From Aquificales bacterium (GTDB taxonomy: Bacteria > Aquificota > Aquificia > Aquificales > Aquificaceae), in the NCBI GenBank assembly GCA_027037055.1, contig JALWBR010000018.1, positions 13,923 to 37,922 of the forward strand: a DNA stretch of 24,000 bases. The letters run 5' to 3'. Of the stretch, positions 2 to 24,000 are shown piece by piece; position 1 is the stretch's first letter; every line of letters starts with the position of its first letter. Made by a program: the position numbers and the translations under genes. Under the pieces are notes generated by a model. The model saw only the letters and a program-made list of their open reading frames with translations, did no database searches and was not told the DNA's origin.

Positions 2-331
2 GACTTTGAAAGATGGATAAACGAACCTCATAAGGTTGTATTTCCGGAAGGGGAAAGTTTGAGAGATGTTTATAAAAGGGTGAGTGATTTTATTGAATAT
101 ATTAAAAAAAATTACAGGGGTAAAACCGTCTTGGCGGTATCCCATACCGTGCCTATAAGGTGTATGTACTGCGCGCTTCTCAATGTAGATCTGGCAAGAT
201 TTTGGGGATTCGGCTGTGACAATGCCTCTTACTCTACGGTGTTCATAGAAGATGACAGATCTGTAATAAACAGGTTAAATATTACATGTCATTTGGGGGA
301 ACTATATGTGGAAGCTCATCAGGCTCTTTAG
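2..331 (+). CDS. Histidine phosphatase family protein (phosphoglycerate mutase / CobC-like), C-terminal part; 5' end lies outside the window
   Basis: The frame is open from base 2 (DFERWINEPHKVVFPEGESLRDVYKRV...TVLAVSHTVPIRC...). The 'PEGES' and 'VSH' segments are typical of the C-terminal half of His-phosphatase superfamily enzymes. The TTG at 59 in the ORF track is only an internal codon. Confidence 0.7.
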   Translation, partial: DFERWINEPHKVVFPEGESLRDVYKRVSDFIEYIKKNYRGKTVLAVSHTVPIRCMYCALLNVDLARFWGFGCDNASYSTVFIEDDRSVINRLNITCHLGELYVEAHQAL

Positions 332-2867: not shown

Positions 2868-2868
2868 G

Positions 2869-3483
2869 ATGGAACAGCTTCTTGATTTTTTAAGTAAGGC
2901 GGGTTATGTAATCTATCCCCTTATAATACTTTCCATCTTCTCATGGTTCATCATAATTGAAAGGGCTTTTAACTTAAGGGCATCAAAATTTATTCCTAAG
3001 AATATAAACGATATTAAAAATCTTATCCACAGGGGTGACATAGACGGAGCGATGAAGCTGGCATCTTTAAGTCACGATCCTTTCAGCAGGGCATTAAGTA
3101 CGGTTCTTCAAGAGTATGAAAAGGGCAGGAGAAACAAGATACACCTAAGTCAGATTGCTGAAACAGAGCTTGTTTCCGTGGTCCCTCTTGTTGAAAAAAA
3201 TCTTCTCCTGCTGTCAGCCATTGCATCAATAGCCCCACTGCTTGGCCTTTTTGGAACAATAACGGGGCTTATAAAAGTATTTTCAGCCTTTGCAATCTCC
3301 GAAGCGGAGGAAGGAGTAACCCTCCTTGCCTCTGGAATAAGCGAGGCTTTAACGGCAGCGGCAGCGGGATTGATAGTTGCCATACCCGCCCTGTTCGCCT
3401 ATTGGATCTTCCGTGCTGTGGGCGATAAAATATTGGCGAAGATTGAGAATTCTTTTAAGGAAATACTGGAGATCTTAGAATGA
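2869..3483 (+). CDS. MotA/TolQ/ExbB proton-channel family protein
   Basis: 204 aa with three predicted TM segments. Family signatures are LLGLFGTITGLIKVF and GISEALTAAAAGLIVAIPALFAY. A GAGGTGA Shine-Dalgarno lies upstream of the ATG. Confidence 0.9.
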   Translation: MEQLLDFLSKAGYVIYPLIILSIFSWFIIIERAFNLRASKFIPKNINDIKNLIHRGDIDGAMKLASLSHDPFSRALSTVLQEYEKGRRNKIHLSQIAETELVSVVPLVEKNLLLLSAIASIAPLLGLFGTITGLIKVFSAFAISEAEEGVTLLASGISEALTAAAAGLIVAIPALFAYWIFRAVGDKILAKIENSFKEILEILE

Positions 3484-3881
3484 ATCTGCGGAAGGGAAGA
3501 AGACTATCAAGGGATGAGAGGGCTTACATAGATGTGGTACCCATAGTGGATATACTTCTCGCTGTTTTCCTTTTCTTGGCAATCCTTGCCTTCCAATCTC
3601 CCATGACCTTCATAGCGGTAAAGCTACCCTTTGCAGAACACGGCGAAAAGGGAGCCATAAGTATAATGAAGATACAAGTTACCGCTGACGGATCTTACAG
3701 AATGGGAGGAAAAAGGCTAAGCATATCAGAAATAGATAAAAGGATTAAAAAGGTAAAACCCACATCCATAATAATAGAGGCGGATGAAAGGGCTCAGCAC
3801 AAGTTTGTTGTTCAACTTATGGATATAGCGAAGAAAAATAAGGTGGAAGATCTCGTAATTGCAACAAGAACGAGAAGGTAA
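3480..3881 (+). CDS. ExbD/TolR family biopolymer transport protein
   Basis: 133 aa with an N-terminal IDVVPIVDILLAVFLFLAIL anchor typical of ExbD/TolR. ATGA start/stop overlap with the preceding gene. Confidence 0.85.
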   Translation: MNLRKGRRLSRDERAYIDVVPIVDILLAVFLFLAILAFQSPMTFIAVKLPFAEHGEKGAISIMKIQVTADGSYRMGGKRLSISEIDKRIKKVKPTSIIIEADERAQHKFVVQLMDIAKKNKVEDLVIATRTRR

Positions 3882-11118: not shown

Positions 11119-12510
11119 ATGCGTGTGGTAATAGTGGGGAACGGTCCTGCCTCAGCTTCCGCTATAGAATCTTTCAGAGAAATAGATAAGGATTCGGAAA
11201 TAGTAGTCTTATCCGATGAAGAATTCCCTACCTATGCACCAAACTGTATGGAAAATGTGATAAGGAACGATATACAGGATAATGCACTTTTTTACAAAGG
11301 AGGGTTTGAGTTTTACGAAAGATACAAGGTTGATTTCAGACCAAAAAAGGAAGTAAAGGCGGTTGATACAAAAAGAAAGGTTGTTATAACTTCCGACGGG
11401 GATGAGATAGAGTATGATAAGTGCCTCTTAGCCGCAGGTGCTGACTCTTTTATACCTCCTATACAAGGTATTGAACTCGGCGGTGTAACAACCGCAAAGA
11501 ATCTGTACGATGCTTTAAAGATAAGAGAATGGATAAAAAGTGGAAAGATAAAAGATATAGTCATAGTAGGAGCGGGACCCATAGGTATTGAAGATGCGGA
11601 GACCCTCAAACATCTCGGATTTAATGTAACGGTAGTTGAAATATTTAACAGAGTCTTACCGAGAATGCTTGATAAGGACATGGCGGATATATACATGAAG
11701 TATCTGGAAGATCTGGGAATAAGATTCCTCCTTGAGCATCAGGTTACATCCATAGAAGGAAACAACTGGGTTGAGGGAGTAAGGGTAAAACCCATTCAAA
11801 GAGACAGGGAGATTTTCATAAAAGCGGACATGGTCATACTTTCTGTCGGCGTAAGACCCCGTACAAGGCTCGTTGAAAATACTGATATAAAAATACACAC
11901 GGATGAAAAGACGGGTAAACCGATGGGGGGAATATTAACCGATGAGTATCAAAGGACATCAAACCCCGATGTATATGCAGCGGGGGATATATGCTCATCA
12001 GTAGATGTCTTCGGTAATCACAGGTGGATAGCTTTATTCCCTGCAGCCCAGCAGGAAGGATATATTGCGGGGTACAATATGGCAGGATTGAGGGTAAAAA
12101 ATGAAGGAAGCGTTGATTACAATGCGGTAAAAACGAGAGAGGTTACAGCCGGTAGCGGAGGCATTTTCGGAGAGGATAAAGAAATTCTAAAGGTTGAATA
12201 TGATAATTATTTGATAAAAATATTCCTCAGCGAGGGTAGGATAACAGGTTATCAGTTTGTGGGTATACCCGCAAGTGAAGATATTAACAAGACAAATACC
12301 CTTCTCTATTCTCTTGTAAGGGAAGATTGGAAAAATACAGTAATATCAAGAAAGGGTATGGGACTGGAATCCTCGGGAGTGCTTATGCACAACTTCATAA
12401 GGAATAATAGAGTAGTAAACGAAACACATATAGATATAATAATGAAGGGAATACTAAGAGCCTTGGGAAGTACCGCCTTGGATACCCCCCTCTTCCGCAG
12501 AACTCTCTGA
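11119..12510 (+). CDS. FAD-dependent pyridine nucleotide-disulfide oxidoreductase (NADH oxidase / CoA-disulfide reductase-like)
   Basis: Rossmann motifs [13 protein letters not shown] (FAD) and [15 protein letters not shown] (NAD(P)H), YAAGDIC near the C-terminal FAD contact, and a single candidate redox Cys in YAPNCMENV. Confidence 0.85.
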
Positions 12511-13965
12511 TTCCATACCCGGTTTATATATAACTATTCTGTTCTTCCCCAACTTTTTAGCCCTGTAAAGGGCTATATCCGCCTCTTTTATAAGCGTATC
12601 AATATTATCAACATCCTCCCTGTAGGTTGATATACCGCCGCTCACCGTCGTAGATATATATTTGCCATTTACGGGAAACTTCTTTTGTTCAAAGATCTTC
12701 CTTATCCTCTCCGCAACTTGAAATCCACTTTCAGCATCACTATTCTGGAGAACAACAACAAATTCCTCACCGCCGAATCGTGAAACAATATCAGAGCTCC
12801 TTACATTGCTTTTAAGAATTTCCGCAAACTCCTTAAGGACCCTGTCACCCACATCATGACCGTAGTTATCATTTATGTGCTTGAAGTTATCTATATCAAA
12901 AACGACCAATGTAAAAATGTTACCGTACCTTTTAGCATTCTCTATAATCAGCTTTATATGTTCAAAGAAGAACCTCCTGTTATACAGACCAGTAAGGTGA
13001 TCAATATAGGCTATCTCCTGAAGTTTATCCCTTTCCGTTTTTATTTCCTCAATAAGATCTTTCAATCTCTCACCCATAAGCAAAATACTGTGTTTTAACA
13101 TATATATCTCATCCCTATTCTTTTCCCGCGCTATTTCCCTTTCAAGGGCTTCTATCTTTGAAAAATCCCCCCTTTGAAAGGATTCCGCGGTGTCCTTTAT
13201 AAGTTCTATCCCAGAAACAACCCTCCTTATAGTTAGATAAACGATAAAGCTTATAAGGAAGGTAAGAACAAAGTTGTAAAGGGTAAGCTTTATAAATTCC
13301 ACAATGTAACTTCTGTAAAGGGTCGCCATATCCTTGACTATTATTATTCTGCCCGCAGGTATCTCCCCCCTTATTAATATGGGAATATCCATTATGAACT
13401 TTTTATCGGGGAATTCTCCCACAATTCTGTAACCATCAATATCCATGTAATCCGTAAGGCTAAGGATTTCCGTGCTTGATGCATCTTCAACAAGAACCTT
13501 TTTAAAAACATATCTATCCTTTATGTAAATATCCTGAATACCATATTCCTTTAAAATGCCTTCAATAAATTTTTTATCATAAATTATCATCCAGTCAATA
13601 TCTTCAACAAGCTTGATCAGATCAAGAATATCCGCAAGGTGAGAATAAACGAGATAACATCCCTCTTTTTTAGTCACATAAAATCCCACAACCGTACCTT
13701 CATTTGTAAGATCGTAAACCTTAAATTTGTTCTTACACCTATCTTCACTGACCTTCAATAAAGATCCGGGTCCTGCGGTCTCTTTAAGACGGGATATTTC
13801 AAAATCCTCAAAGGTTTTATATAGGGAGTGTATTCTTTTGAAGTTGGTACTTATCTCTCCTTCCAGATTGTTTCTTAGTTGGATAAAGTTAAATATACCT
13901 ATGGTTACAACTATTAGAATTGAAACAATCAAAATACTTAAAAATATCCTCTTTTTCAGGGTCAT
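12454..13965 (-). CDS. Membrane-bound diguanylate cyclase (2 TM + periplasmic sensor + linker/coiled coil + GGDEF with I-site)
   Basis: Catalytic FDIDNFKHINDNYGHDVGD and GGEEF, with an RSSD I-site 5 residues upstream of GGEEF. TM helices lie at about aa 14-36 and 237-262 of the long ORF. The maximal ORF starts at 13989 (MTELYNYMM...). I favour the second of the tandem ATGs (13965, MTLKKRIF...) because of the -10 element geometry. ATG 13968 is also possible. Confidence 0.9.
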   Translation of the reverse strand: MTLKKRIFLSILIVSILIVVTIGIFNFIQLRNNLEGEISTNFKRIHSLYKTFEDFEISRLKETAGPGSLLKVSEDRCKNKFKVYDLTNEGTVVGFYVTKKEGCYLVYSHLADILDLIKLVEDIDWMIIYDKKFIEGILKEYGIQDIYIKDRYVFKKVLVEDASSTEILSLTDYMDIDGYRIVGEFPDKKFIMDIPILIRGEIPAGRIIIVKDMATLYRSYIVEFIKLTLYNFVLTFLISFIVYLTIRRVVSGIELIKDTAESFQRGDFSKIEALEREIAREKNRDEIYMLKHSILLMGERLKDLIEEIKTERDKLQEIAYIDHLTGLYNRRFFFEHIKLIIENAKRYGNIFTLVVFDIDNFKHINDNYGHDVGDRVLKEFAEILKSNVRSSDIVSRFGGEEFVVVLQNSDAESGFQVAERIRKIFEQKKFPVNGKYISTTVSGGISTYREDVDNIDTLIKEADIALYRAKKLGKNRIVIYKPGMESESSAEEGGIQGGTSQGS

Positions 13966-13970
13966 CATAT

Positions 13971-13982
13971 AATTATATAATT
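13971..13982. promoter_or_regulatory. 12-bp perfect palindrome AATTATATAATT providing -10 boxes for both nadD and the diguanylate cyclase gene
   Basis: Plus strand: TATAAT (13976-13981), 6 nt, then nadD ATG 13988. Minus strand: TATAAT (13977-13972), 6 nt, then ATG 13965 (or 3 nt to ATG 13968). Confidence 0.45.
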
Positions 13983-13987
13983 CGGTC

Positions 13988-14581
13988 ATGATACTATTCT
14001 TTGGCGGTAGCTTTGATCCGATTCACAACGGACATCTTATTCTCGCGGAGGATGTCAGGGAAAAGCTGGGATTTAAAAAGGTAATTCTTATTCCCGCAAA
14101 CATATCGCCCCTCAAAGGAAGATATGTAGCACCACCCGAGCACAGGATACGCATGATAGATATATCAATAAGGAACCTTGAAAACTTTGATGTTGACCTT
14201 TGGGAGATAAAGGCAGGCGGAGTTTCTTACACAATAAATACAATAAAGTACATTAAGGAAAAGTACGGTAATAAACCCTACATGCTTGTCGGAGCGGACA
14301 GTATGCTAAGCTTTGACAAATGGAAGGATCCGGAAAAAATCCTTAAAGAAAGCTGTATAGTTATTATGGAAAGGGAAGGAAAACTTCCCTTGGTGGAAAG
14401 ATTTATGACAGAGAAATTTCCGTCCTTTAAAGAAGGCAAGGATTATTTAATAGTAAAAACCAGGCGTATAGATATATCTTCCACTGAAATAAGGGAAAGG
14501 GTAAAAAGGGGACTTCCTATAAGAGGGATGGTACCCGTGGAGGTAGAGACTTATATAAAAGAAAAGGGTCTTTATAAATAA
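13988..14581 (+). CDS. nadD: Nicotinate-nucleotide adenylyltransferase
   Basis: FFGGSFDPIHNGHL (HxGH) at the N-terminus and ISSTEIRERV (ISSTxxR) near the C-terminus. 197 aa. Confidence 0.93.
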   Translation: MILFFGGSFDPIHNGHLILAEDVREKLGFKKVILIPANISPLKGRYVAPPEHRIRMIDISIRNLENFDVDLWEIKAGGVSYTINTIKYIKEKYGNKPYMLVGADSMLSFDKWKDPEKILKESCIVIMEREGKLPLVERFMTEKFPSFKEGKDYLIVKTRRIDISSTEIRERVKRGLPIRGMVPVEVETYIKEKGLYK

Positions 14582-14875
14582 CTACTGTGTCTCACTTATT
14601 TCCGTTATCCTTATACCTATCTTATCTCCCACTATAACCATCTCCCCTTTGGCAATAGGCACACCGTTAACCTTAACATCTATGGTGTCACTTATGTTCC
14701 TTTCAAGCTCTATAACGGAACCAGCCTGCAGATTTATAAGATCCCGTACAAGAATGGTAGCCTCTCCCAAAGAACCTTCTATCTTCATTGGGATATCATG
14801 AAGTTTCTCGCATTTCTCCAATTCACATAAATTGTGCTCTTCCCTTTTTTCTTCTCTCCCTTGACCGTTTTCCAT
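14582..14875 (-). CDS. fliN: Flagellar motor switch protein FliN (minimal SpoA-domain form)
   Basis: SpoA domain LGEATILVRDLINLQAGSVIELERNISDTIDVKVNGVPIAKGEMVIVGDKIGIRITEI. I chose the start at ATG 14875 (97 aa) because GAAGGAGA lies 7 nt upstream and it forms a TAATG overlap with the fliF stop. The longer ORF start at 14896 has no SD. Confidence 0.88.
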   Translation of the reverse strand: MENGQGREEKREEHNLCELEKCEKLHDIPMKIEGSLGEATILVRDLINLQAGSVIELERNISDTIDVKVNGVPIAKGEMVIVGDKIGIRITEISETQ

Positions 14876-16398
14876 TATCTTGTCTCCTTCAACCATGATT
14901 TGATAATCTTGGCAACCTTGTTAGGCTCTTCCTTCGCTATATTGGTTATAGTATCTATTACTATAACCTCCTTTGCCTTTTCCCTTATAGCCTCAAGGCC
15001 CGCAACACTTTCAAGCTCTCCAGCAGTGGGTACCTTGGCAGGAGTAGGCGGAGCTTCAACAGTAACCCTCTCCCTTCTTCCCAATCTTCTCATCAAAATA
15101 ACAAAAGCTATAAAAGCAAGCAAAGCCATAAAGGCATAAACGCCCCATCTTATATATTCGGAGTAATCAACATATTCAACAAACTCGGGTTTTTGAAAGG
15201 GAACGGAAACTATGGATATCTTGTCTCCCCTTTCCATGTTAAGCCCTGCAGCGGCTACAATCATATCCTCAAGCTTTTTCAAATCCACATCCTTCTCAGC
15301 ATTCTTGTCTATAAGAACACCCACACTTATCCTCTTTATCTTCGGTGCATAGTCCGCCGTATAGATCTCCTTTTTACTCACCTCAAAGTTTGTTGTAACT
15401 TCACTTTTCTCCGTATTTATAGTCCCACCGCCCCCTACACCTGCCCCCGGCGGTATATTTGCGGTTGCACCCGGGATACCACCTATACCCGTACCCATTG
15501 TTCTCTCTTTCCTTTTCTGTTGACTGACAACAGCAGTCATGTCTGGATCATATATCTCTTCCTTCTTCTCCATTTTTGTAAAGTCCATCTCCGCGGATAC
15601 GACAACCTTAACCTTGTCATAGCCTATGGTTTCGGAAAGGGCTTTCAAAATCTTCTTTTCCAATTTCCTTTCAAACTCAGAAACTATCTTCAACTGCTTC
15701 TCACTAACGCCTTTAAATTCGTCTCCCTCATCAAGGAGGGCTGTAAGGTCCCTGCCCCTGTCGTCAATTATAACCACATTGGAAGGTTTAAGTCTTTCAA
15801 CACTTGATGCTACAAGATTTCTGATGGCTATAATCTGTTCACGGGTAATATCCGTACCAGGCTTAAGCTTTATAAAGACGGAAGCGGAAGGTTCTTCTTC
15901 CTCCCTTAGGAATATTGATTTTTCTGGTATGGCTATATGCACCCTTGCATCGGTAATGTTCTTTATTCTTAGAATAGTTCTGACAAGTTCTCCCTCTATA
16001 GCCCTTTTGTAATTTACCTGTTGTTGAAAATTTGAAATACCTATCCCCGTTTTATCAAAAATCTCATAACCTATTATGCCCTTACTGGGAATACCCTTTG
16101 CACTGAGCTTAAGCCTTATATCTCTTACCTGACCTTCCGGAACGAGAACGGTCCTCCCATCCTTCCCTATCTTATACTTAACTCCTTCCTTATCCAGTTC
16201 CGTTAAGATAGCTACCATATCCTCTTGACTGAGACCAGAGTAAAGGATTGAGTAGCTGGGCTGGGCTAAATAAACGGAAGCAACCCCAAGAATTATAATA
16301 AGACCGAGGGCGGAAGCTATTATCAAAAACTTTTGTGTCGTAGGAAGCTGTTTAAACCTTTCTACTAAGCCCCTTATACTTTCCCTTACATCAGCCAT
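14875..16398 (-). CDS. fliF: Flagellar M-ring protein FliF
   Basis: 507 aa. N-terminal TM, YscJ/FliF ring-building domains (LYSGLSQEDMVAILTELDKEGVKYK...), second TM (VYAFMALLAFIAFVILM) and a charged C-terminal tail. Confidence 0.93.
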   Translation of the reverse strand: MADVRESIRGLVERFKQLPTTQKFLIIASALGLIIILGVASVYLAQPSYSILYSGLSQEDMVAILTELDKEGVKYKIGKDGRTVLVPEGQVRDIRLKLSAKGIPSKGIIGYEIFDKTGIGISNFQQQVNYKRAIEGELVRTILRIKNITDARVHIAIPEKSIFLREEEEPSASVFIKLKPGTDITREQIIAIRNLVASSVERLKPSNVVIIDDRGRDLTALLDEGDEFKGVSEKQLKIVSEFERKLEKKILKALSETIGYDKVKVVVSAEMDFTKMEKKEEIYDPDMTAVVSQQKRKERTMGTGIGGIPGATANIPPGAGVGGGGTINTEKSEVTTNFEVSKKEIYTADYAPKIKRISVGVLIDKNAEKDVDLKKLEDMIVAAAGLNMERGDKISIVSVPFQKPEFVEYVDYSEYIRWGVYAFMALLAFIAFVILMRRLGRRERVTVEAPPTPAKVPTAGELESVAGLEAIREKAKEVIVIDTITNIAKEEPNKVAKIIKSWLKETR

Positions 16399-16399
16399 A

Positions 16400-16690
16400 T
16401 TAAACCTGCATCCTCTGAAGTTCCTGGAATGCCTCTAAAAGCTTATTTCTTATTTGAATCAAAAGATTTAGTGCCAATGAAGCCTTCTCAAATTCTATTA
16501 TGGCAGAATGAAGGGGAATATTCTCCCCCCTTAAGATAGCTGATTTTATCTCTTTTGACTTTAACTGTTGCCTATTTACCCACTCTATAAAGGAAGATAA
16601 TTGCTTAGCAAAGTCATCCCCCTTTCCTTGTTTAATATCATTTCCCTTTATGTGCTTTAATGGTAAAGAAGGAAAATCTCTTATCTCCAT
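16400..16690 (-). CDS. fliE: Flagellar hook-basal body complex protein FliE
   Basis: The C-terminal FEKASLALNLLIQIRNKLLEAFQELQRMQV matches the conserved FliE C-terminus (..VRNKl..AYqEimrMqv). Confidence 0.88.
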   Translation of the reverse strand: MEIRDFPSLPLKHIKGNDIKQGKGDDFAKQLSSFIEWVNRQQLKSKEIKSAILRGENIPLHSAIIEFEKASLALNLLIQIRNKLLEAFQELQRMQV

Positions 16691-17094
16691 AGTTCTAATG
16701 TCCTCTCCGCCATTTCCCTTGTCATATTAAAAGCTGTCATATTTGCCTCATAACTCCTTATTGCGGATATCATGTTTGCCATCTCCTTTGCAAGATCAAT
16801 GTTAGGTTTCATAACATAACCTTCCTCATTGGCCATGGGGTGGTCGGGATCATAAACCATTCTGAAAGGTTCATCTGATTCTATTATACCTTCAACCCTT
16901 ACCGGTATCTCTCCCCTTTCCTTAGATTTTGGATCCTCAACAGCCCTGAATACAACCTCCAACCTTCGGAAAGGTACACCTTCCTCCGTATAAGAGTCAT
17001 AATTTGCCAGATTTGAGGCTATGGTGTTCATCCTTATCCTCTGGGCGTACATACCAGATGCACTTATATTGAATGCGTTAAATACATCATTCAT
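16681..17094 (-). CDS. flgC: Flagellar basal-body rod protein FlgC
   Basis: ISASGMYAQRIRMNTIASNLANYDS at the N-terminus and AIRSYEANMTAFNMTREMAERTLEL at the C-terminus. Confidence 0.93.
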   Translation of the reverse strand: MNDVFNAFNISASGMYAQRIRMNTIASNLANYDSYTEEGVPFRRLEVVFRAVEDPKSKERGEIPVRVEGIIESDEPFRMVYDPDHPMANEEGYVMKPNIDLAKEMANMISAIRSYEANMTAFNMTREMAERTLELWR

Positions 17095-17471
17095 CTTCTA
17101 CCCTCCTTGATCACATTTTCCAATTTCCTCAAATATCCCGTTGCCATCTTCATATAAGTTTCATAAGCCAATCTGTTTTTTACCATCTTTGCCATCTCCT
17201 CTTCTATACTCACATTATTTCTATCGTTACCTACAAGGCCCCTGTTAATCTCAATAACTTTAAAACTACTTCCCTCACCTGACCCGTCCAAGTGCTTCGC
17301 CCTTGTTTTTTTCAATTTAAGTACTTTTCCCAATTCTCTGCGGAATATAACATCCTTTGCCCTGTAACCCGGCGTATCCGCATTGGCTATATTGCTGAGT
17401 ATAACCTTATGCCTTAACCATGTATAATTTAAAAAGGGTTTAAGCTCGTCCGCCCCTTTAAATATGTCCAT
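17091..17471 (-). CDS. flgB: Flagellar basal-body rod protein FlgB
   Basis: LSNIANADTPGYRAKDV rod-protein N-terminal motif. 126 aa. GGGGGT SD 5 nt upstream. ATGA overlap with flgC. Confidence 0.92.
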   Translation of the reverse strand: MDIFKGADELKPFLNYTWLRHKVILSNIANADTPGYRAKDVIFRRELGKVLKLKKTRAKHLDGSGEGSSFKVIEINRGLVGNDRNNVSIEEEMAKMVKNRLAYETYMKMATGYLRKLENVIKEGRR

Positions 17472-17474
17472 AAT

Positions 17475-19253
17475 TTACCCCCACAAGGCTTTTATAGCCT
17501 CACTCCATATATTATTAGTCTCCGAAGCCTTTTTGACAACCCATTTTAAAAGTTCCTTGTCCTTTCTTATCTCACCTATCCTACCCATCTGAAATATAGC
17601 CCACCAGAAATAGGGATCCCTATTATCACCCTTATGTTCAATAAACTTTCTGTAATATTTTTCCGCCTCCGCGTATTTTTTCATATCAAAATATTTATCC
17701 CCCAACCTCAACAAAGCATATTCCTTCATAAAATCCATTCCTTTTACCTTCTCCGCCTCCTTAAGGAATGCCTTATAGCTCTTTAGGTCATCACCTATGT
17801 AAGCAACAAGAAATAATGCCCTCACCTTATGGGTACCATCTATACCCTTGATAGATGCCTTTAACAGCCTAAGACTCCTCTTTCTATCACCTTTAAGAAA
17901 TGCATAAATACCTTCTATATAGCTCCTTAAATATTTGTTACTCAACTCTTTTGATAGTGAAACAGCCTCCTCATCACCCGTATTAAGTAGTGCAAGAACG
18001 GTTATCTCTTTCTGTTTATCCTTCCAGAATATTTCCTTAACATTGTTTCTATTAGTCTTGTAAAGATCAACTATCAATAAGCTATCTTTACGAGGAGATA
18101 GGGACTCATAAACACCATGAAGCAATCGGATTTCCTTTGTTTTATTAGCTATGTCTTCCCTGTAAACATTTTTAACCTTTAAAACCTCCCTATCCCCTTC
18201 ATCAATATGTTTTTCTTTAAGGATCAGGTAATAAATGCCGAGAAGGGGAAGTATGCTTCTTTTCTCCTCTATATTAAGCCATACTATATCCCTAAGTTTT
18301 GACCTGTAATCCTTAAAAAACTCATTGTAGGTTTGAAGAAAATCGTAATACATCCATAAAGAGGAAAATATGGCTTGGGCTGTTTTACTTGATAGAAGCG
18401 TGTTTTCATCCGCATACTTCTTTATTTTCTCAAAGGCATCCTTGTAATTTTTATTATCCAGATATATAAAAATTAAATACATATTTATCTTGTCCGTATA
18501 TTCACCGTAATAATCCTTCCTTGACGCTATTTCCAAATAAAGGGTCGCCTTTTTTATATCACCCGTTCTGTAGTAAGAGGCTCCGAGTCTGTATAAAAAA
18601 GCGGGATCATTCTCAAGATACGGGTTTATGCTTCTTGCAATGGAAAGATACTCCACAGCCTTTTTATACTCTTCAATATTGAACATAAAATAGCCGAGAA
18701 CCGTGTAGTAAAGATCCTTTATATCTTTAATATCTTCCTCTTTAAGTCTGAGTACCCGGGTGTATCCTTCCATACTGTCCATAACCGCGGAAGAGAGGGC
18801 AAACTTAATGAGATATTTGGGACTTCCTTTCTCCTTGTAAAGGGTGTCGTAAACAGCTTTGGCTTTCTCATACCAGCCTATCATGTAGTAGCAGTCTCCC
18901 AAAAACTCCCTTTGTAGCAAGGGAAATCTCGGAGTCTTATATTCATAAAAATATTTATTTAAAAAGGCAATGGCGGATCTTATACCGCTCCTGTGACCGG
19001 TGGAATAAAAATATAGGGCGTAGGCTTTTCCCAAATAAAGGTAGGATAGTTCTCCGTAATAGCTTTCCGGAGCAGTGGAATATAGGGAAGAAAAGATATT
19101 TATAGCGCCTATGTAGTCTCCGACTGACAGGCTTTTAACCCCATCATTAAAAAGGGCTTTAAGATTCTCCTTCCCCCTAAGCTCACTATTAAAGGAGTAG
19201 GCTGAAATCAGTACTATCAGAAACAGAGGAAGTCTTCTTACCAGCGATTTCAT
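17475..19253 (-). CDS. Secreted TPR-repeat protein (592 aa), periplasmic scaffold candidate
   Basis: Signal peptide MKSLVRRLPLFLIVLISAYS. TPR-like units throughout (GDYIGAINIFSSLY, GWYEKAKAVYDTLY, GDIKKATLYLEIA, KNYKDAFEKIKKY, KKYAEAEKYYRKFIE). Its stop lies 3 nt before the flgB start. Confidence 0.8.
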   Translation of the reverse strand: MKSLVRRLPLFLIVLISAYSFNSELRGKENLKALFNDGVKSLSVGDYIGAINIFSSLYSTAPESYYGELSYLYLGKAYALYFYSTGHRSGIRSAIAFLNKYFYEYKTPRFPLLQREFLGDCYYMIGWYEKAKAVYDTLYKEKGSPKYLIKFALSSAVMDSMEGYTRVLRLKEEDIKDIKDLYYTVLGYFMFNIEEYKKAVEYLSIARSINPYLENDPAFLYRLGASYYRTGDIKKATLYLEIASRKDYYGEYTDKINMYLIFIYLDNKNYKDAFEKIKKYADENTLLSSKTAQAIFSSLWMYYDFLQTYNEFFKDYRSKLRDIVWLNIEEKRSILPLLGIYYLILKEKHIDEGDREVLKVKNVYREDIANKTKEIRLLHGVYESLSPRKDSLLIVDLYKTNRNNVKEIFWKDKQKEITVLALLNTGDEEAVSLSKELSNKYLRSYIEGIYAFLKGDRKRSLRLLKASIKGIDGTHKVRALFLVAYIGDDLKSYKAFLKEAEKVKGMDFMKEYALLRLGDKYFDMKKYAEAEKYYRKFIEHKGDNRDPYFWWAIFQMGRIGEIRKDKELLKWVVKKASETNNIWSEAIKALWG

Positions 19254-20499
19254 GCCTTATACTCTCTCTATCCCTGTCTCCCTTTTTATTGTAATTTAAC
19301 GGTTTTTCGGACTTTGATATAATCTGCCATCCGTTAACACTTAGCATCTCAAGATCAAATCCTATGATATGAAGCCTTTCCGAGAGCCTTATCTTATCAA
19401 GAAAAGATATATTCTCAGGAACAAGATTTTCAGATCTAACAGATACAGACAGCTTTTCCCTCTCAACCCTTAAGACTATGTTTATATCCTCAGTCTTCAA
19501 ATGAACCCTCTTCGGCTTTGAAATGTTGTTTGTTTCATATTCAGAAATGTCTATAGTTTGCCTTACCTCCGCCACATCCTCAAACTGTTTTATTTCCTCC
19601 TTCCCGCCTCCTGTCTTATGAAGATGATAAACATCCCTTATATCCTCTCTCTTAACAGGTCTTTCAACTTCAGCACTTACTGATTCGGTAACATAATCAC
19701 CCTTCGCATATACCTTTGTCTTCAGCTTAACATCATTAGCATTACCGCCACCATCAACGTGTTTCTTAATAAATTCCCTGGACTCTCCTTTTTCATTAAT
19801 GGGTTCCTTTTCAAATTCAAGGTGTATATTACCCTTTGCCTTACTAAAACCCTCTCTTGAGGGTGAAACCTCTCTTTTATACTCGGATTTTACATCATAA
19901 GGTTGCTTTTGAGGTAGCATATCCTCCTTTAGAAAACCTATATCCCCCTTCTCATTATTCTCTTTCTCTCCATACACTTCCCTTCTTAATATCTCCCCCT
20001 TAATTTTCTCCATTTCGTAGGGTTTAACATCCTTTACATTACTCTTAAGAGCCTCAAATACAGGCTTATCTGTTAAAGATATCTTCTGAACAGCACTTCC
20101 AATGTTCTTTTCCACCTTTTCTGTATTAACACTTAAAATTAATTCCGTCTTACCAGTTTCACTTTGAGGTTTACTTTTATTTTCTTCTGGTTTCTCGCCA
20201 TCAGTAATGTTTTCAACCTTCACATATTTAATATCACCGATAGGTAATACATTTCCTTGTAGTACATTGACGCTCTTTTTCTCTGTATCGTCCTTCTCAG
20301 AATTTACACTATCCAGTATATGCAAACCATCTCCTTTTCTCTCCTCTTTGATACCCCCCATAATCTGGGTTATAATTTCCGAAAATTCCATATACTCACC
20401 ATTTTGTTCCTCAGACTTGGGGGTTAAAAGATCTAATATATCCTCCCCCTTTTTTCCTTTTATACCCCACAAGAATACAGGTAATCCGAATCCGTTCAC
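19189..20499 (-). CDS. Glu/Lys-rich hypothetical protein (436 aa) with a possible FliK-like (hook-length control) C-terminal domain
   Basis: GTG start in a GTGA overlap with the glycosyltransferase stop. An alternative start is ATG 20391. The long low-complexity charged middle and the C-terminal segment RVHLKTEDINIVLRVEREKLSVSVRSENLVPENISFLDKIRLSERLHIIGFDLEMLSVNG follow the alternating pattern of Flg_hook domains but lack the usual P..LG. The functional call is weak. Confidence 0.55.
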   Translation of the reverse strand: MNGFGLPVFLWGIKGKKGEDILDLLTPKSEEQNGEYMEFSEIITQIMGGIKEERKGDGLHILDSVNSEKDDTEKKSVNVLQGNVLPIGDIKYVKVENITDGEKPEENKSKPQSETGKTELILSVNTEKVEKNIGSAVQKISLTDKPVFEALKSNVKDVKPYEMEKIKGEILRREVYGEKENNEKGDIGFLKEDMLPQKQPYDVKSEYKREVSPSREGFSKAKGNIHLEFEKEPINEKGESREFIKKHVDGGGNANDVKLKTKVYAKGDYVTESVSAEVERPVKREDIRDVYHLHKTGGGKEEIKQFEDVAEVRQTIDISEYETNNISKPKRVHLKTEDINIVLRVEREKLSVSVRSENLVPENISFLDKIRLSERLHIIGFDLEMLSVNGWQIISKSEKPLNYNKKGDRDRESIRHEIAGKKTSSVSDSTDFSLLL

Positions 20500-22349
20500 T
20501 TAGAATAGTATATTCCTTCTTTTTTAGCTTTCAAGTACTTTGAAATTCCGTGCTGAGTCTTATACCAGTAAAAGGGTCTTTTTATAAGCTCATAAAGGGC
20601 TATGTAAGCTGATAAGGAATGAAGATACCAATAAAGAGGAATGAGTATAGAAAAAGGTAACAGGTTGTAATATCCCCTCCTCAACAAACCGATAGCATGC
20701 AAAACAATACCCATACCGTTTCCGATCACAAATGTGTATAAGGATATTGTCTTTACATCAAAGGCGGGTGATACAAATAGAGAAAAAAGCATAACAAAGG
20801 GATGGGCAAGGAATATAAAGGGAGTCCCGCCTATGAGCAGAAAGAGGGTCAATAATCCCCTCACACCCGTGTGTTTATATAGATAACCCATATTCCTTGA
20901 GTGGACAAGAAAAGTTTGCATATAACCCTTAATCCATCTGGATCTTTGCTTAATCCAGTTCTTCAAACGGGCATTTGCCTCTTCATAGGTCGTTGAGTTT
21001 ATAAATCCCACCCTGTACCCCTTAACCGCAAATCTTATTCCGAGATCTGCATCTTCCGTTGTATTAAAGGGATCCCAACCTTTTACTCCATCAAGCTTAC
21101 TCCTGTCAAAGTGATTACTTGTACCACCGAGGGGAATGGGAAATCCAAGTTTAACAAGACCCGGTATCATACAGTCAAACCAAAAGCTGTATTCAAGTGT
21201 AAATAGTTTGGTTAAAAGGTTTTCATCCCTGTTGTAGAAGTTAAGCTTGGCCTGTAAACATGCTGTATCCCCTCTACACTTTTCAAAATTAGCAAGGGCG
21301 AGCCTCAATTGATCGGGTTCCGGTATGTCTTCCGCATCGTATATCGTTACATACTTTCCCCTTGCAAAAAATAACCCGTAATTACATGCCTTAGGTTTTG
21401 TCTTAGGCATACTTGCAGGGACTATAACAAACCTCCAGTTATAAGGGGGATTATACCTTTTTGCACTTACAAGGGTCTCATAATCATCCTCTTCAAGGAT
21501 GAGTATGATGTCAAGCTTGTGTTGAGGATAATCAAGTCTCTTTAAAGCACTTATAAGATTTCCTATAACCTCCTTCTCCCTGTAAAGGGGTAAAAGTATG
21601 GTATAAACCGGATACTCATCCCTTTTATTTTCACCTATCTTTACCCTGTTTCCGCAGGAAGAAATAAGACCCGCTAAGCTTACAAAAAGTTTAAAAGCTA
21701 TGGCTGAAATGTAAAATACCTGCATTGCAATGAACATACCCGTTGAAGAACGGGAAGGATATAAAATAAGGGAAAGGATAATTAACAGGCCCACGGTAAG
21801 GAAAAACATCTTTTGTTTCTTTGAAATAACAAGGCTCGCTGATAAATTTTCACTTTCCCTTTTAAGGGAAGAAACAGCAAAATCCATAAGTTCTCTGTGA
21901 AAAACGCTTTGAATGATCCTTTGTAGATCGTTATCGGATATAAGTTTTAAATCAACACGGTTAAACACATACTTATGCTTTAGCTTCTTTGTAATAAACC
22001 TTAAGTCAAGATTTTCCCTCGGATAGGATGTTGCAACAATAAGTGTGTCATCTTCAATCCTTAAAGGTATACACTGATTATCCCATATCTCCTTCGGAGA
22101 AAATATCTTTATTAAACCGATATCCAATTCATTAATTGAGGGTGAAAAGAACCCTATACCGTATTGCTGTGATAGGGCGGTATATAACTCCCTTTTGTTT
22201 ATGTAGCCGAGAGATAGTAATATCCAGCCTATTCTACCACCGAATCTTCTCTGATAGTCAAGGGCATATTTAAGTTGTGTCTCACTTATAACACCGCTCT
22301 CAACCAGTATCTCCCCTATCCTTAAGGTGGCAGTTAAAACTCCGCCCAT
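20496..22349 (-). CDS. Membrane-embedded processive family-2 glycosyltransferase (exopolysaccharide synthase) with an N-terminal MshEN/T2SSE_N c-di-GMP receptor domain
   Basis: Residues 10-33 (RIGEILVESGVISETQLKYALDYQ) and 39-62 (RIGWILLSLGYINKRELYTALSQQ) fit the MshEN 24-mer motif. Two TM helices lie at about aa 181-230. GT2 core: YTILLPLYRE, LEEDD, KPKACNYG, DAED (338-341), TED (431-433), QRSRW (468-472). Further TM helices run to the C-terminus. Confidence 0.9.
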   Translation of the reverse strand: MGGVLTATLRIGEILVESGVISETQLKYALDYQRRFGGRIGWILLSLGYINKRELYTALSQQYGIGFFSPSINELDIGLIKIFSPKEIWDNQCIPLRIEDDTLIVATSYPRENLDLRFITKKLKHKYVFNRVDLKLISDNDLQRIIQSVFHRELMDFAVSSLKRESENLSASLVISKKQKMFFLTVGLLIILSLILYPSRSSTGMFIAMQVFYISAIAFKLFVSLAGLISSCGNRVKIGENKRDEYPVYTILLPLYREKEVIGNLISALKRLDYPQHKLDIILILEEDDYETLVSAKRYNPPYNWRFVIVPASMPKTKPKACNYGLFFARGKYVTIYDAEDIPEPDQLRLALANFEKCRGDTACLQAKLNFYNRDENLLTKLFTLEYSFWFDCMIPGLVKLGFPIPLGGTSNHFDRSKLDGVKGWDPFNTTEDADLGIRFAVKGYRVGFINSTTYEEANARLKNWIKQRSRWIKGYMQTFLVHSRNMGYLYKHTGVRGLLTLFLLIGGTPFIFLAHPFVMLFSLFVSPAFDVKTISLYTFVIGNGMGIVLHAIGLLRRGYYNLLPFSILIPLYWYLHSLSAYIALYELIKRPFYWYKTQHGISKYLKAKKEGIYYSK

Positions 22350-23134
22350 AACGATAAAAACCCTCCTTCAGATTTACCCGTGTTCAAACCGTACAAGGTT
22401 TTTATAAACCCAATAAAAAGGGAGTAATTACCTGCCCTTATGCGCGGGCCTATGTAAAGATTAAGCAGTTCAAAGCTATCGGGTACAAATACATTGGGAA
22501 CTATATTAAGATTGGTTTCCGCTGTCCTTTGGAAATCAAGGGTGCCTATGAGCTGAAATCCCTTACCAATATTACCACCCAAGGTAAGATAAGAAGAAGA
22601 GATACTAAGCACCACATCTGTGTACTTTCTGTAACCGAAACCGCTATCAACAAACACCCATTTATTGGAATAACCTCCCAAAAGACCCACCTCAAAGGCG
22701 TAACTTCCGTAGCCTATAATCGGTTCAATGCTTGTGCTGTAGTTCCAAGGGATTATAAATTTTCCATAAAGGGAAAATACAAAGGGGTCGTAATAAACAA
22801 AACTGCCTATTATTCCCACCTCTATATCCTGAAGGTTTCCGTTGTATTTTTCCCCGCAGGTTATGAGGGTAAGGGGTACTTTAAATATTAAAGTGGCCCT
22901 ATCGCTCAACCCGTATTCACTGTAACCTATGAGATCATGTTTTGTATATGAACATTCAAGTTTTTTCTCTTTACCGTACTTATCAAAGTATGAGTTTGCT
23001 GTAAGAAAAAAATAGGTAAGGGAAAAGAAGTAATGGTTCTTTTTACGGAGCCATGCGGAAGCTTCCGCCTCTTTAATTGTAACAAATATAAGTAAAACTA
23101 CTATACAACGCCCGAACCCCTTCCGGCTTTTCAT
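22334..23134 (-). CDS. Outer-membrane beta-barrel protein (266 aa), candidate polysaccharide export porin
   Basis: Signal peptide with an AEA/SA cleavage-like site. Alternating hydrophobic/aromatic beta-strand pattern throughout. C-terminal ...GFLSLWAEF ends in Phe, as in OMP sorting signals. AAGGAAGGT SD 7 nt upstream of the ATG. 16-bp overlap with the synthase gene. Confidence 0.7.
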   Translation of the reverse strand: MKSRKGFGRCIVVLLIFVTIKEAEASAWLRKKNHYFFSLTYFFLTANSYFDKYGKEKKLECSYTKHDLIGYSEYGLSDRATLIFKVPLTLITCGEKYNGNLQDIEVGIIGSFVYYDPFVFSLYGKFIIPWNYSTSIEPIIGYGSYAFEVGLLGGYSNKWVFVDSGFGYRKYTDVVLSISSSYLTLGGNIGKGFQLIGTLDFQRTAETNLNIVPNVFVPDSFELLNLYIGPRIRAGNYSLFIGFIKTLYGLNTGKSEGGFLSLWAEF

Positions 23135-23232
23135 TTATATTACCTTCCTTATTTGAAAGTTATTTATTTCATGTTAATATATTACGGTCTTACCGAAAGG
23201 CAATATTGATTATTTCCACACTCAAAATATCT

Positions 23233-23238
23233 TAAAAT
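23233..23238 (+). promoter_or_regulatory. -10-like TAAAAT 8 nt upstream of the prfB ATG
   Basis: TAAAAT (23233-23238), then ACTGTGTC, then ATG 23247. There is no SD-like purine run before the ATG. Confidence 0.35.
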
Positions 23239-23246
23239 ACTGTGTC

Positions 23247-24000
23247 ATGATTGAAACACTTGAGGAAAGGTTTGAGGAAATAAGAAAGGTAATAAATATT
23301 GATGAGCTTAAGAAGGAGCTTGCAGATCTTGATAAGAAGATGTCCGAGCCGAATTTTTGGGAAGATCAAGATAAGGCAAGGGAAGTTATAAAGAAAAGGA
23401 AATGGATAGAGGGTACACTTAAGACGGTAGAGGAGATAGAGGAATCCCTCAGGGATTTAAGGGAATTACAAGAGATGGCGGAAGAGGATCCAGAAGCACG
23501 GGAGATGTTTTTGCAAGAATTGAATTCGGTTGAAAAAAAGATAAGGGATATGGAGATAAAGACGCTCCTTTCTGAGGAGATGGATGAAAAGGATGCTTAT
23601 CTTACTGTACAGGCGGGTGCTGGAGGGACGGAAGCATGTGACTGGGCGGAGATGCTTTTAAGGATGTATATGAGGTGGGCTGAGAAACACGGATATGAAA
23701 TTGAAGTCATAGATACAACACCCGACGATGTTGCGGGTATAAAGAGTGCAACCATCCTTATAAAGGGACCTTACGCCTACGGTTATTTGAAGGGGGAAAC
23801 TGGGGTACACAGGCTTGTCAGAATTTCACCTTTTGACGCCAACGCACGGAGACACACATCCTTTGCATCCGTATCAGTAACCCCGAGGATAGATGAAAGC
23901 ATAAAGGTGGAGATAAGGGATGAAGATATAAAGATGGAAACCTTCAGGGCTTCCGGAGCGGGCGGGCAGTATGTAAACAAAACGGATACCGCGGTGAGAT
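23247..24000 (+). CDS. prfB: Peptide chain release factor 2, 5' part (3' end outside the window); single uninterrupted frame
   Basis: My own translation from ATG 23247 gives [25 protein letters not shown]...[12 protein letters not shown]...[22 protein letters not shown]...[19 protein letters not shown]. The SPF tripeptide identifies RF2 and GGQ is the peptidyl-tRNA hydrolysis motif. The gene is absent from the ORF track, presumably because no stop codon falls inside the window. Confidence 0.93.

Follow-up and report, generated by a model that had tools for sequence, protein, structure and literature searches.

The gene string

This analysis concerns a stretch of 24,000 nucleotides (nt) from an Aquificales bacterium (contig JALWBR010000018.1; the whole stretch is referred to below as the window), and within it a run of four consecutive genes encoding an outer-membrane barrel, a glycan synthase, a Glu/Lys-rich protein of 436 residues and a tetratricopeptide repeat (TPR) protein. 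An initial annotation had read the four genes as a complete but split module for synthase-dependent exopolysaccharide (EPS) secretion. All coordinates are positions within the window, and numbers beginning with L denote the loci of relatives with which it was compared. The four open reading frames (ORFs) were confirmed on the minus strand, each at its reported coordinates and with overlapping junctions:

22334-23134, minus strand, outer-membrane barrel gene, 266 residues
20496-22349, minus strand, gene of the synthase with an MshEN domain and a family 2 glycosyltransferase (GT2) domain, 617 residues
19189-20499, minus strand, gene of the 436-residue Glu/Lys-rich protein, GTG start
17475-19253, minus strand, TPR protein gene, 592 residues

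The overlaps measure 16 nt between the barrel and synthase genes, 4 nt (GTGA) between the synthase gene and that of the 436-residue protein, and 65 nt between the latter and the TPR gene. The string does not end with the TPR gene: flgB begins after a gap of 3 nt, and the genes run on as flgB-flgC-fliE-fliF-fliN from 17471 down to 14582, each identified by Pfam and NCBIfam equivalog matches above cut-off. At the other end, the upstream neighbour of the barrel gene is the divergent prfB, so the gene string starts at the barrel. The initial annotation had mentioned neither the continuation into flgB-fliN nor prfB:

17091-17471, minus strand, flgB
16681-17094, minus strand, flgC
16400-16690, minus strand, fliE
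14875-16398, minus strand, fliF
14582-14896, minus strand, fliN
about 23247 (ATG), plus strand, prfB, divergent from the barrel gene and upstream of it

We consider it probable that this string consists of two distinct units placed end to end in the same direction, i.e. (i) an EPS pair made up of the barrel and the synthase and (ii) a flagellar operon. The genomic comparisons that lead to this view are given below, together with the readings that compete with it.

The synthase and the barrel

The synthase has a Pfam MshEN match and matches to three GT2 families. Two of its regions can be placed as follows:

22164..22325, minus strand, match to the cyclic di-GMP (c-di-GMP) motif model NF053729, 64.2 bits against an NCBIfam cut-off of 38
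20778..21605, minus strand, GT2 catalytic domain (synthase residues about 249-524) with YDAED, TEDADLG and QRSRW

At synthase residues 10-62 two 24-residue RxGxx(L/V)(L/V)xxG...Q motifs with a 5-residue spacer are legible, which is the arrangement defined by Wang et al. for the tandem MshEN c-di-GMP motif (PMC5013675). YDAED, TEDADLG and QRSRW, together with every family-invariant residue, were retained in an alignment with 63 homologues, and hydrophobic segments flank the glycosyltransferase domain on both sides. The protein thus has the MshEN-GT2 composition proposed for it originally; it looks like an intact processive GT2 enzyme, and a c-di-GMP receptor is predicted to be coupled to it. 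An exact-sequence look-up of the synthase returned no record.

Identity with each of three named synthases was considered and rejected. The models of BcsA scored far too low (TIGR03030, 51.6 bits against 699; NF008558, 47.8 against 992), the synthase had no PilZ match and the window no BcsB-like ORF. The NfrB model (NF008411, 47.9 bits against 1170) aligned to the MshEN part only, and the domain order is reversed, while the PgaC/IcaA model (TIGR03937) gave 55.2 bits against a cut-off of 422.

The barrel protein begins with a signal-like segment that ends in A-S-A and terminates in ...LWAEF, i.e. with the terminal Phe noted in the initial annotation. An AlphaFold2 model built from 64 diverse sequences of the representative search has 12 strands (pLDDT 91.1, pTM 0.83), and the family comprises 147 representative clusters at E<=1e-3, nearly all of 190-345 residues. 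Its most conserved block, P129...Y132...G141, lies in the long loop between strands 5 and 6 (residues 129-145), which is probably extracellular and folded into the lumen. When the model was compared with the PDB using Foldseek, the closest structure was the COG4313 channel 4RL8 (TM score 0.75-0.78, E 6e-11), followed by FapF (TM score 0.6-0.7), autotransporter beta-domains and NanC; the family profile searched against PDB sequences also picked out 4RL8, weakly (E 0.0023). No Pfam or NCBIfam family was found for the window's barrel, and PF13557 failed to match it even at E<=10. Among its homologues, PF13557 matched one of 17 in alignment A2 (E 9.6e-7) and one of 64 in alignment A7 (E 0.0079), both below the scale of the curated cut-off.

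The initial annotation had raised the question of whether the barrel belongs to an outer-membrane protein family known from elsewhere. Judged by its model, the fold is indeed that of a known superfamily, the one to which COG4313 belongs, but this superfamily includes channels for linear polymers. The COG4313 channels themselves, presumed importers of hydrophobic molecules, are 12-stranded and carry an N-terminal plug, which occludes the lumen in Pput2725 (PMC4493636). In the barrel studied here strand 1 is preceded by only about 8 mature residues, which makes an N-terminal lumen plug unlikely, and its genomic partner, the synthase, points to glycan export. We regard the barrel as a candidate polysaccharide conduit.

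Neighbours of the synthase in other phyla

We scanned one genome per species, which gave 584 synthase relatives confirmed by tblastn, and took a census of the best 80 loci; in those outside the window's own clade the synthase is 39-52% identical over its full length. Neighbouring ORFs were clustered, and the resulting families were searched across the 80 loci with hidden Markov models (HMMs). Synthase loci were found in Aquificota, Thermotogae, Desulfobacterota, Actinomycetota, Chloroflexota, Thermus, cyanobacteria, Bacteroidota, Gemmatimonadota and others. A barrel homologue lies beside the synthase in 25 of the 80 loci, exclusively in diderm phyla. Its gene immediately precedes that of the synthase in Aquificota, Desulfobacterota, Pedobacter, HR37 and Synergistaceae, and lies downstream or divergently on the other strand in Gemmatimonadota, gamma- and alphaproteobacteria, cyanobacteria and a metagenome-assembled genome (MAG) of Rhodothermales. 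This survival of the linkage through rearrangement is good evidence of a shared function, and the comparison supports the view that the barrel and the MshEN-GT2 synthase are a functional pair of the synthase-dependent type. That part of the earlier description, a minimal variant of the pathway with an unusually small porin, stands for these two genes; the TPR and 436-residue proteins probably do not belong to it (see below).

The most frequent neighbours of the synthase were a BcsB-like protein (PF03170) of roughly 690 residues, signal-bearing at its N-terminus and anchored at its C-terminus (52 of 80 loci), and a polytopic membrane protein of roughly 520 residues resembling PMT_2, i.e. of a type like the C-fold glycosyltransferases (GT-C; 53 of 80). 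GH5 enzymes were encoded in 17 loci, and ManC in some. BcsB-like subunit, barrel, MshEN-GT2 synthase and GT-C-like membrane protein apparently make up a widespread and uncharacterised cassette; NCBIfam has no names for the cassette proteins, no name for the cassette was found in Pfam or NCBIfam, and our literature searches returned no description of a GT2 cassette with an N-terminal MshEN domain. The HMMs of the BcsB-like and GT-C-like families found no match in the window, and the locus is therefore reduced, not complete as the initial annotation had supposed. For the same reason we rejected the idea that the 436-residue or the TPR protein might be a divergent form of either subunit.

The composition of the cassette varies. 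In Mucilaginibacter (L054-L079) the BcsB-like, synthase and GT-C-like genes are accompanied by GH5, with no barrel within 10 kb, while in Pedobacter (L032, L038) the barrel gene sits between the BcsB-like gene and the synthase; in Actinomycetota the synthase stands alone. ManC (GDP-mannose pyrophosphorylase) or a related cupin belongs to the cassette in Thermocrinis, Synergistaceae and thermophilic Synechococcus (L003:4267-5652; the cyanobacterial loci L051, L055, L073 and L078; L050). The ManC and GH5 neighbours may be a hint that the polymer contains mannose or is beta-1,4-linked, e.g. as a mannan or glucan. The BcsB-like subunit of one aquificotal locus (L004:776-2875) carries an N-terminal SPOR (peptidoglycan-binding) domain, and that of a desulfobacterotal locus (L008:7042-9147) has a weak SPOR match below the Pfam cut-off.

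The census also bears on a different view of the barrel, namely that it takes up a hydrophobic or small substrate in the manner of a COG4313 channel, the polymer either staying in the periplasm or leaving the cell elsewhere. Structure and sequence comparisons agree on 4RL8 as the best match, the COG4313 family has been implicated in hydrophobic uptake (PMC4493636), and about 20 Mucilaginibacter loci have the cassette with no barrel within 10 kb. However, the tie between barrel and synthase is found in about 10 phyla or classes, all of them diderm, and has outlasted rearrangements; the barrel's mature N-terminus before strand 1 (about 8 residues) contrasts with the occluding N-terminal segment of Pput2725; and the same fold class holds a secretion channel for a linear polymer (FapF) and an oligosaccharide porin (NanC). 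We judge an uptake function to be quite unlikely.

The TPR and 436-residue proteins accompany the flagellar operon

When HMMs of the TPR family (E<=0.01) and of the 436-residue family were run over the 80 synthase loci, the single locus to match was L002, which is of the window's clade; neither family had a match in the 76 synthase loci outside that clade. The TPR protein was as initially described, with Pfam TPR matches and a conserved hydrophobic N-terminus, and has 21 detectable homologues, all Aquificota-type. Its alignment was used for a metagenome scan, which yielded L089-L094; the other loci outside the clade were L084 (Hydrogenivirga caldilitoris), L085 and L086 (Aquifex-type MAGs) and L087. 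TPR homologues in these outside loci are 31-47% identical to the window's protein.

In all 10 loci that reach that far the TPR gene has flgB as its direct downstream neighbour, with flgC-fliE-fliF next where the contig extends. In each outside locus it is preceded by an unannotated ORF of the 436-residue family (342-559 residues) that shares the C-terminal domain, although in L091 and L092 this ORF is shortened or cut by the contig end; the pair of genes occurs in 9 loci outside the window's clade, and the 436-residue family provides the first gene of the operon in 12 loci. Upstream of the TPR-flgB operon in the 9 outside loci (0.5-10 kb examined per locus) there was no synthase or barrel. The EPS pair stands ahead of the flagellar operon only in L002, L081 and L083/L102, i.e. 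in the window's clade, which comprises at least 2 species with barrel and synthase 77-84% identical. The joining of the EPS pair to the flagellar operon is a peculiarity of this clade.

The 65-nt overlap between the two genes (19189-19253) is out of frame and has the same length in the Hydrogenivirga and Aquifex-type loci. The final 21 codons of the 436-residue protein (...SDSTDFSLLL) double as signal-peptide codons of the TPR protein, so conservation of the tail of the 436-residue family may partly reflect dual coding. Automatic gene calls in L081 and L082 begin the TPR gene 56 codons late and drop the signal peptide.

These comparisons support the assignment of the TPR and 436-residue genes as the first two genes of the Aquificaceae flagellar basal-body operon. 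The TPR protein may be a periplasmic factor in flagellar assembly or a scaffold there, its genomic context being what points to a flagellar role; its profile found generic or designed TPR proteins only when searched against the PDB.

We therefore find it very hard to maintain that all four proteins form one minimal secretion machine with the TPR protein as its scaffold and the 436-residue protein as an accessory of the synthase. Such a machine would suit the tight or overlapping junctions across the four genes, the conservation of their order in the clade and the secretion of the TPR protein, which it shares with AlgK; the TPR protein also has weak, TPR-level matches to BcsC and PrsT, far below their cut-offs. 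But the TPR/436-residue pair occurs in 9 loci that have neither synthase nor barrel in the 0.5-10 kb upstream, always at flgB where the contig extends, it is missing from the 76 synthase loci outside the clade, and the conserved partners of the synthase elsewhere are the BcsB-like and GT-C-like proteins. The four genes are thus not co-conserved in relatives, as a single module had led the initial annotation to expect; two of them go with flagellar genes.

The 436-residue protein as a FliK candidate

The central region of the 436-residue protein contains 14% Glu and 15% Lys, in keeping with the Glu/Lys-rich character first assigned to it, and the protein has no Pfam or NCBIfam match. The family, searched first with 5 and then with 11 members against Pfam, NCBIfam and PDB sequences, gave chance-level matches only, with no Flg_hook. 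Its members vary from 342 to 559 residues and have centres rich in Pro, Glu and Lys; the 436-residue protein is 40% identical where the synthase and TPR proteins keep 84%. Two parts of the family are recognisable in spite of this divergence. The first is an N-terminal [DES]FxxLL motif, found at residues 28-38 in 7 of 9 full-length members and at residue 52 in L093; the FliK proteins of E. coli and Salmonella have DFLALL at residues 28-29, and those of Ralstonia and Pseudomonas have looser forms. The second is the C-terminal domain:

19192..19509, minus strand, conserved C-terminal domain of the 436-residue family, about 105 residues, ending in DFSLLL

Invariant residues of this domain are G67, E71, N76, G77 and L123 (alignment A5, 11 sequences), and the domain of about 100 residues is followed by a polar tail and a hydrophobic terminus. 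An AlphaFold2 model of the domain from a shallow alignment was unusable (pLDDT 38). Profile comparison with hhalign was not significant, either against E. coli FliK alone (E 0.7) or against 4-6 proteobacterial FliK sequences (E 0.1 and 0.16), though the alignments put the conserved helix-Gly-strand block in the register of the FliK core. The LxPxxLG signature of proteobacterial FliK is absent from the family.

No fliK has been found in the Aquifex genome (PMC3708937). Weighing these features, we incline slightly towards the 436-residue protein being a FliK-like candidate for hook-length control and substrate switching: the architecture, the variable length and the rate of change of the family suit a ruler protein, the hhalign register agrees with the FliK core even if it is not significant, and FliK is otherwise unaccounted for in Aquifex. 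A considerable probability, somewhat short of even, goes to the 436-residue protein being a lineage-specific flagellar or regulatory protein unlike FliK (for instance a chaperone, a factor of the anti-sigma type or an interaction partner for the TPR protein). This would be consistent with the lack of significant similarity to Flg_hook or to solved domains of the type III secretion substrate-specificity switch (T3S4), with the missing LxPxxLG signature and with the constraint that the overlapping TPR signal peptide places on the C-terminal tail.

The junction between the two units

Scans for promoters and terminators between 14000 and 23600 found matches no richer than in shuffled sequence. Two regions are considered here:

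23135..23246, minus strand, intergenic region between prfB and the barrel gene, which presumably holds the promoter of the barrel-synthase unit
20507..20534, minus strand, TTGAAA-N16-TATACT, ending 7 nt before the GTG of the gene of the 436-residue protein

In the first region there is a sigma-70-like match at 23203-23176, the number of such matches being no higher than in shuffled sequence.

In four outside loci, the intergenic region of roughly 60 nt that precedes the orthologue of the 436-residue protein contains two conserved blocks, CAGGCA(A/G)AAAATTATAACAT and CCGAT(A/T)T, separated by a variable spacer of 12-13 nt (L084:8625-8682, L087:8505-8562, L089:3415-3472, L090:2666-2723). The box has the form TAACAT-N12/13-CCGAT(A/T)T, and CCGAT(A/T)T resembles the -10 element of a sigma-28 (FliA)-type promoter. 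No such box was present upstream of the 436-residue gene or of the barrel gene in the window, and a sigma-54 pattern (of the TGGCAC-N5-TTGC type) was not found in the 160 nt upstream of the 436-residue gene and its orthologues.

The TTGAAA-N16-TATACT element, by comparison, is kept in three lineages of the clade with a spacer that varies (window 20499-20545; L083:1085-1134; L002:1213-1262), and a near-palindrome, TTTCAAAGTACTTGAAA, overlaps its -35 box. In L083/L102 and L002 the synthase ends at ...KYLKA, and the -10 box falls in the non-coding DNA beyond its stop codon; the window has lost this stop, so that its synthase reads through the promoter-like element and is 9 residues longer (KKEGIYYSK). 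The element could be an internal (leaderless) promoter, or else the conserved GGAA before TATACT could be a ribosome-binding site.

Several of our observations weigh against the division into an EPS pair and a flagellar operon, or against the functions that we attach to its parts. The synthase stop and the start of the 436-residue gene overlap in the window (GTGA), and at least 2 species of the clade retain the order barrel-synthase-436-TPR-flgB...fliN together with a nearby GGDEF gene; the overlap and the kept order make co-transcription, and a functional link specific to the clade, possible. In addition, the function proposed for the nearest solved barrel, COG4313, is uptake of hydrophobic molecules and not glycan export (PMC4493636), and comparison with FliK yielded nothing significant (no Flg_hook, hhalign E 0.1-0.16, AlphaFold2 pLDDT 38).

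One form that such a link could take is a functional fusion particular to this clade, in which the EPS pair has been recruited into the flagellar operon to equip flagellated cells with a ready-made, c-di-GMP-triggered synthase of a holdfast-like adhesin for surface attachment or, alternatively, the GT2 protein acts on the motor in the manner of the EpsE clutch of B. subtilis. The synthase/436-residue codon overlap of 4 nt in the window (23-nt gap in a sister species) fits with this, as do the absence from the window of the sigma-28-like promoter of other genera and the addition of a GGDEF cyclase and fliN beside the operon in this clade only. Against it, the TTGAAA-N16-TATACT box could supply the flagellar genes with a promoter of their own, adjacency of the EPS pair and the flagellar genes proves nothing by itself, and EpsE of B. 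subtilis is a soluble GT2 protein, whereas the synthase here is polytopic. A fusion of this kind is, in our estimate, unlikely, though it deserves some weight.

Proposed functions and their significance

What the analysis shows directly is the domain content, the fold of the barrel and the company that the genes keep; the functions proposed here go beyond this. Under the favoured division into two units, the first (barrel and synthase) would be a reduced synthase-dependent EPS system, a two-gene remnant or minimal form of the widespread cassette. Binding of c-di-GMP to the MshEN domain would release the GT2 synthase, which would polymerise and translocate a beta-linked glycan, and the 12-stranded barrel would pass the linear chain across the outer membrane. 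A possible source of the c-di-GMP is a cyclase encoded near the flagellar genes:

12454..13989, minus strand, HAMP-GGDEF diguanylate cyclase with a GGEEF active site and an RSSD I-site 5 residues upstream (canonical spacing)

This gene adjoins the flagellar operon (after nadD) only in the window's clade (L002, L081, L102), and its link to the synthase is putative. The second unit, from 20499, would be a flagellar basal-body operon consisting of the 436-residue gene, the TPR gene and flgB-flgC-fliE-fliF (with fliN in this clade), the first product perhaps acting in hook-length control and substrate switching and the second being periplasmic.

The analysis corrects a plausible four-part annotation. 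Should the small barrel prove to be a glycan conduit, synthase-dependent secretion can cross the outer membrane without a giant protein in which TPR repeats and a barrel are combined. For the flagellum, the pair at the head of the Aquificaceae flgB operon supplies a specific candidate for the hook-length/substrate-switch protein that Aquifex reportedly lacks, and draws attention to a periplasmic TPR protein, so far unstudied, in a hyperthermophile flagellum.

A bolder combination of these ideas would make the pair a self-sufficient two-protein exporter, the smallest known, fused to the flagellar operon as a latent adhesin synthase switched by c-di-GMP, with the 436-residue protein as the FliK of Aquifex. 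We doubt that all of this holds together. If it did, a porin of the 12-stranded COG4313/FapF type would replace the large barrel with its fused or partner TPR protein, and motile cells would carry an adhesin synthase that c-di-GMP switches on at surface contact.

Other features of the window

In the window fliN follows fliF directly with a 22-nt overlap and no fliG, fliH or fliI between them (14582-16398), while in Hydrogenivirga and Aquifex-type loci fliF is the last gene of the operon, and purF or other genes come next. The prfB gene (release factor 2, SPF motif; 23247-24000, plus strand) can be read from its ATG in one uninterrupted frame and shows no trace of the programmed +1 frameshift site that is usual in such genes, and its homologue in L081 was called as one product of 359 residues. 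A second, unrelated large TPR protein (853 residues) is encoded at 306-3881 on the plus strand, followed by ExbB/TolQ-like, ExbD/TolR-like and DUF218 genes. Genes for modifying enzymes were absent from the four-gene interval, as the initial annotation had reported.

Comparison with known systems

The TPR protein resembles PflA and PflB of Campylobacterota and FlcA of spirochaetes in being a secreted, all-TPR protein of about 600 residues encoded with basal-body genes. PflA/PflB and FlcA are periplasmic TPR proteins of the flagellar motor, while AlgK and the N-terminal parts of BcsC and PgaA are TPR scaffolds of EPS systems; the window's TPR family differs from the latter in being unlinked to the synthase outside the clade. 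Among the parts that mark a synthase-dependent system, the locus has the GT2 synthase, a c-di-GMP receptor (as a motif) and the outer-membrane barrel, and lacks a TPR scaffold of the system's own. The 436-residue protein is like FliK in being encoded in a flagellar operon and in its N-terminal [DES]FxxLL motif, its central part, which is variable and of low complexity, its conserved C-terminal domain and its fast evolution, but differs in that Flg_hook is undetected and LxPxxLG absent.

The barrel-synthase pair shares with the cellulose (Bcs) system a processive GT2 enzyme with QxxRW, control by c-di-GMP (predicted here) and, in related loci, a BcsB-family subunit and sometimes GH5. It differs in having MshEN in place of PilZ as receptor, in the absence of a BcsB-like gene from the window and in its 12-stranded, TPR-less barrel; BcsC is a much larger protein in which TPR repeats are fused to the barrel. 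The Nfr system of E. coli consists of the GT2-MshEN synthase NfrB, the TPR and barrel protein NfrA and the epimerase NfrC (PMC8669469, PMC8669472). An MshEN-gated GT2 synthase and a dedicated outer-membrane barrel are common to Nfr and the locus described here, and the NfrB model aligns to the MshEN part of the synthase. However, the MshEN domain stands at the N-terminus here but at the C-terminus of NfrB, an epimerase is lacking, the barrel is free-standing with 12 strands and no fused TPR, and the usual partners are BcsB-like and GT-C-like proteins. The barrel itself is most like COG4313 (Pput2725, 4RL8) and FapF, which are also 12-stranded and of the same size; its genomic partner, however, is a glycan synthase, where theirs are catabolic or amyloid operons.

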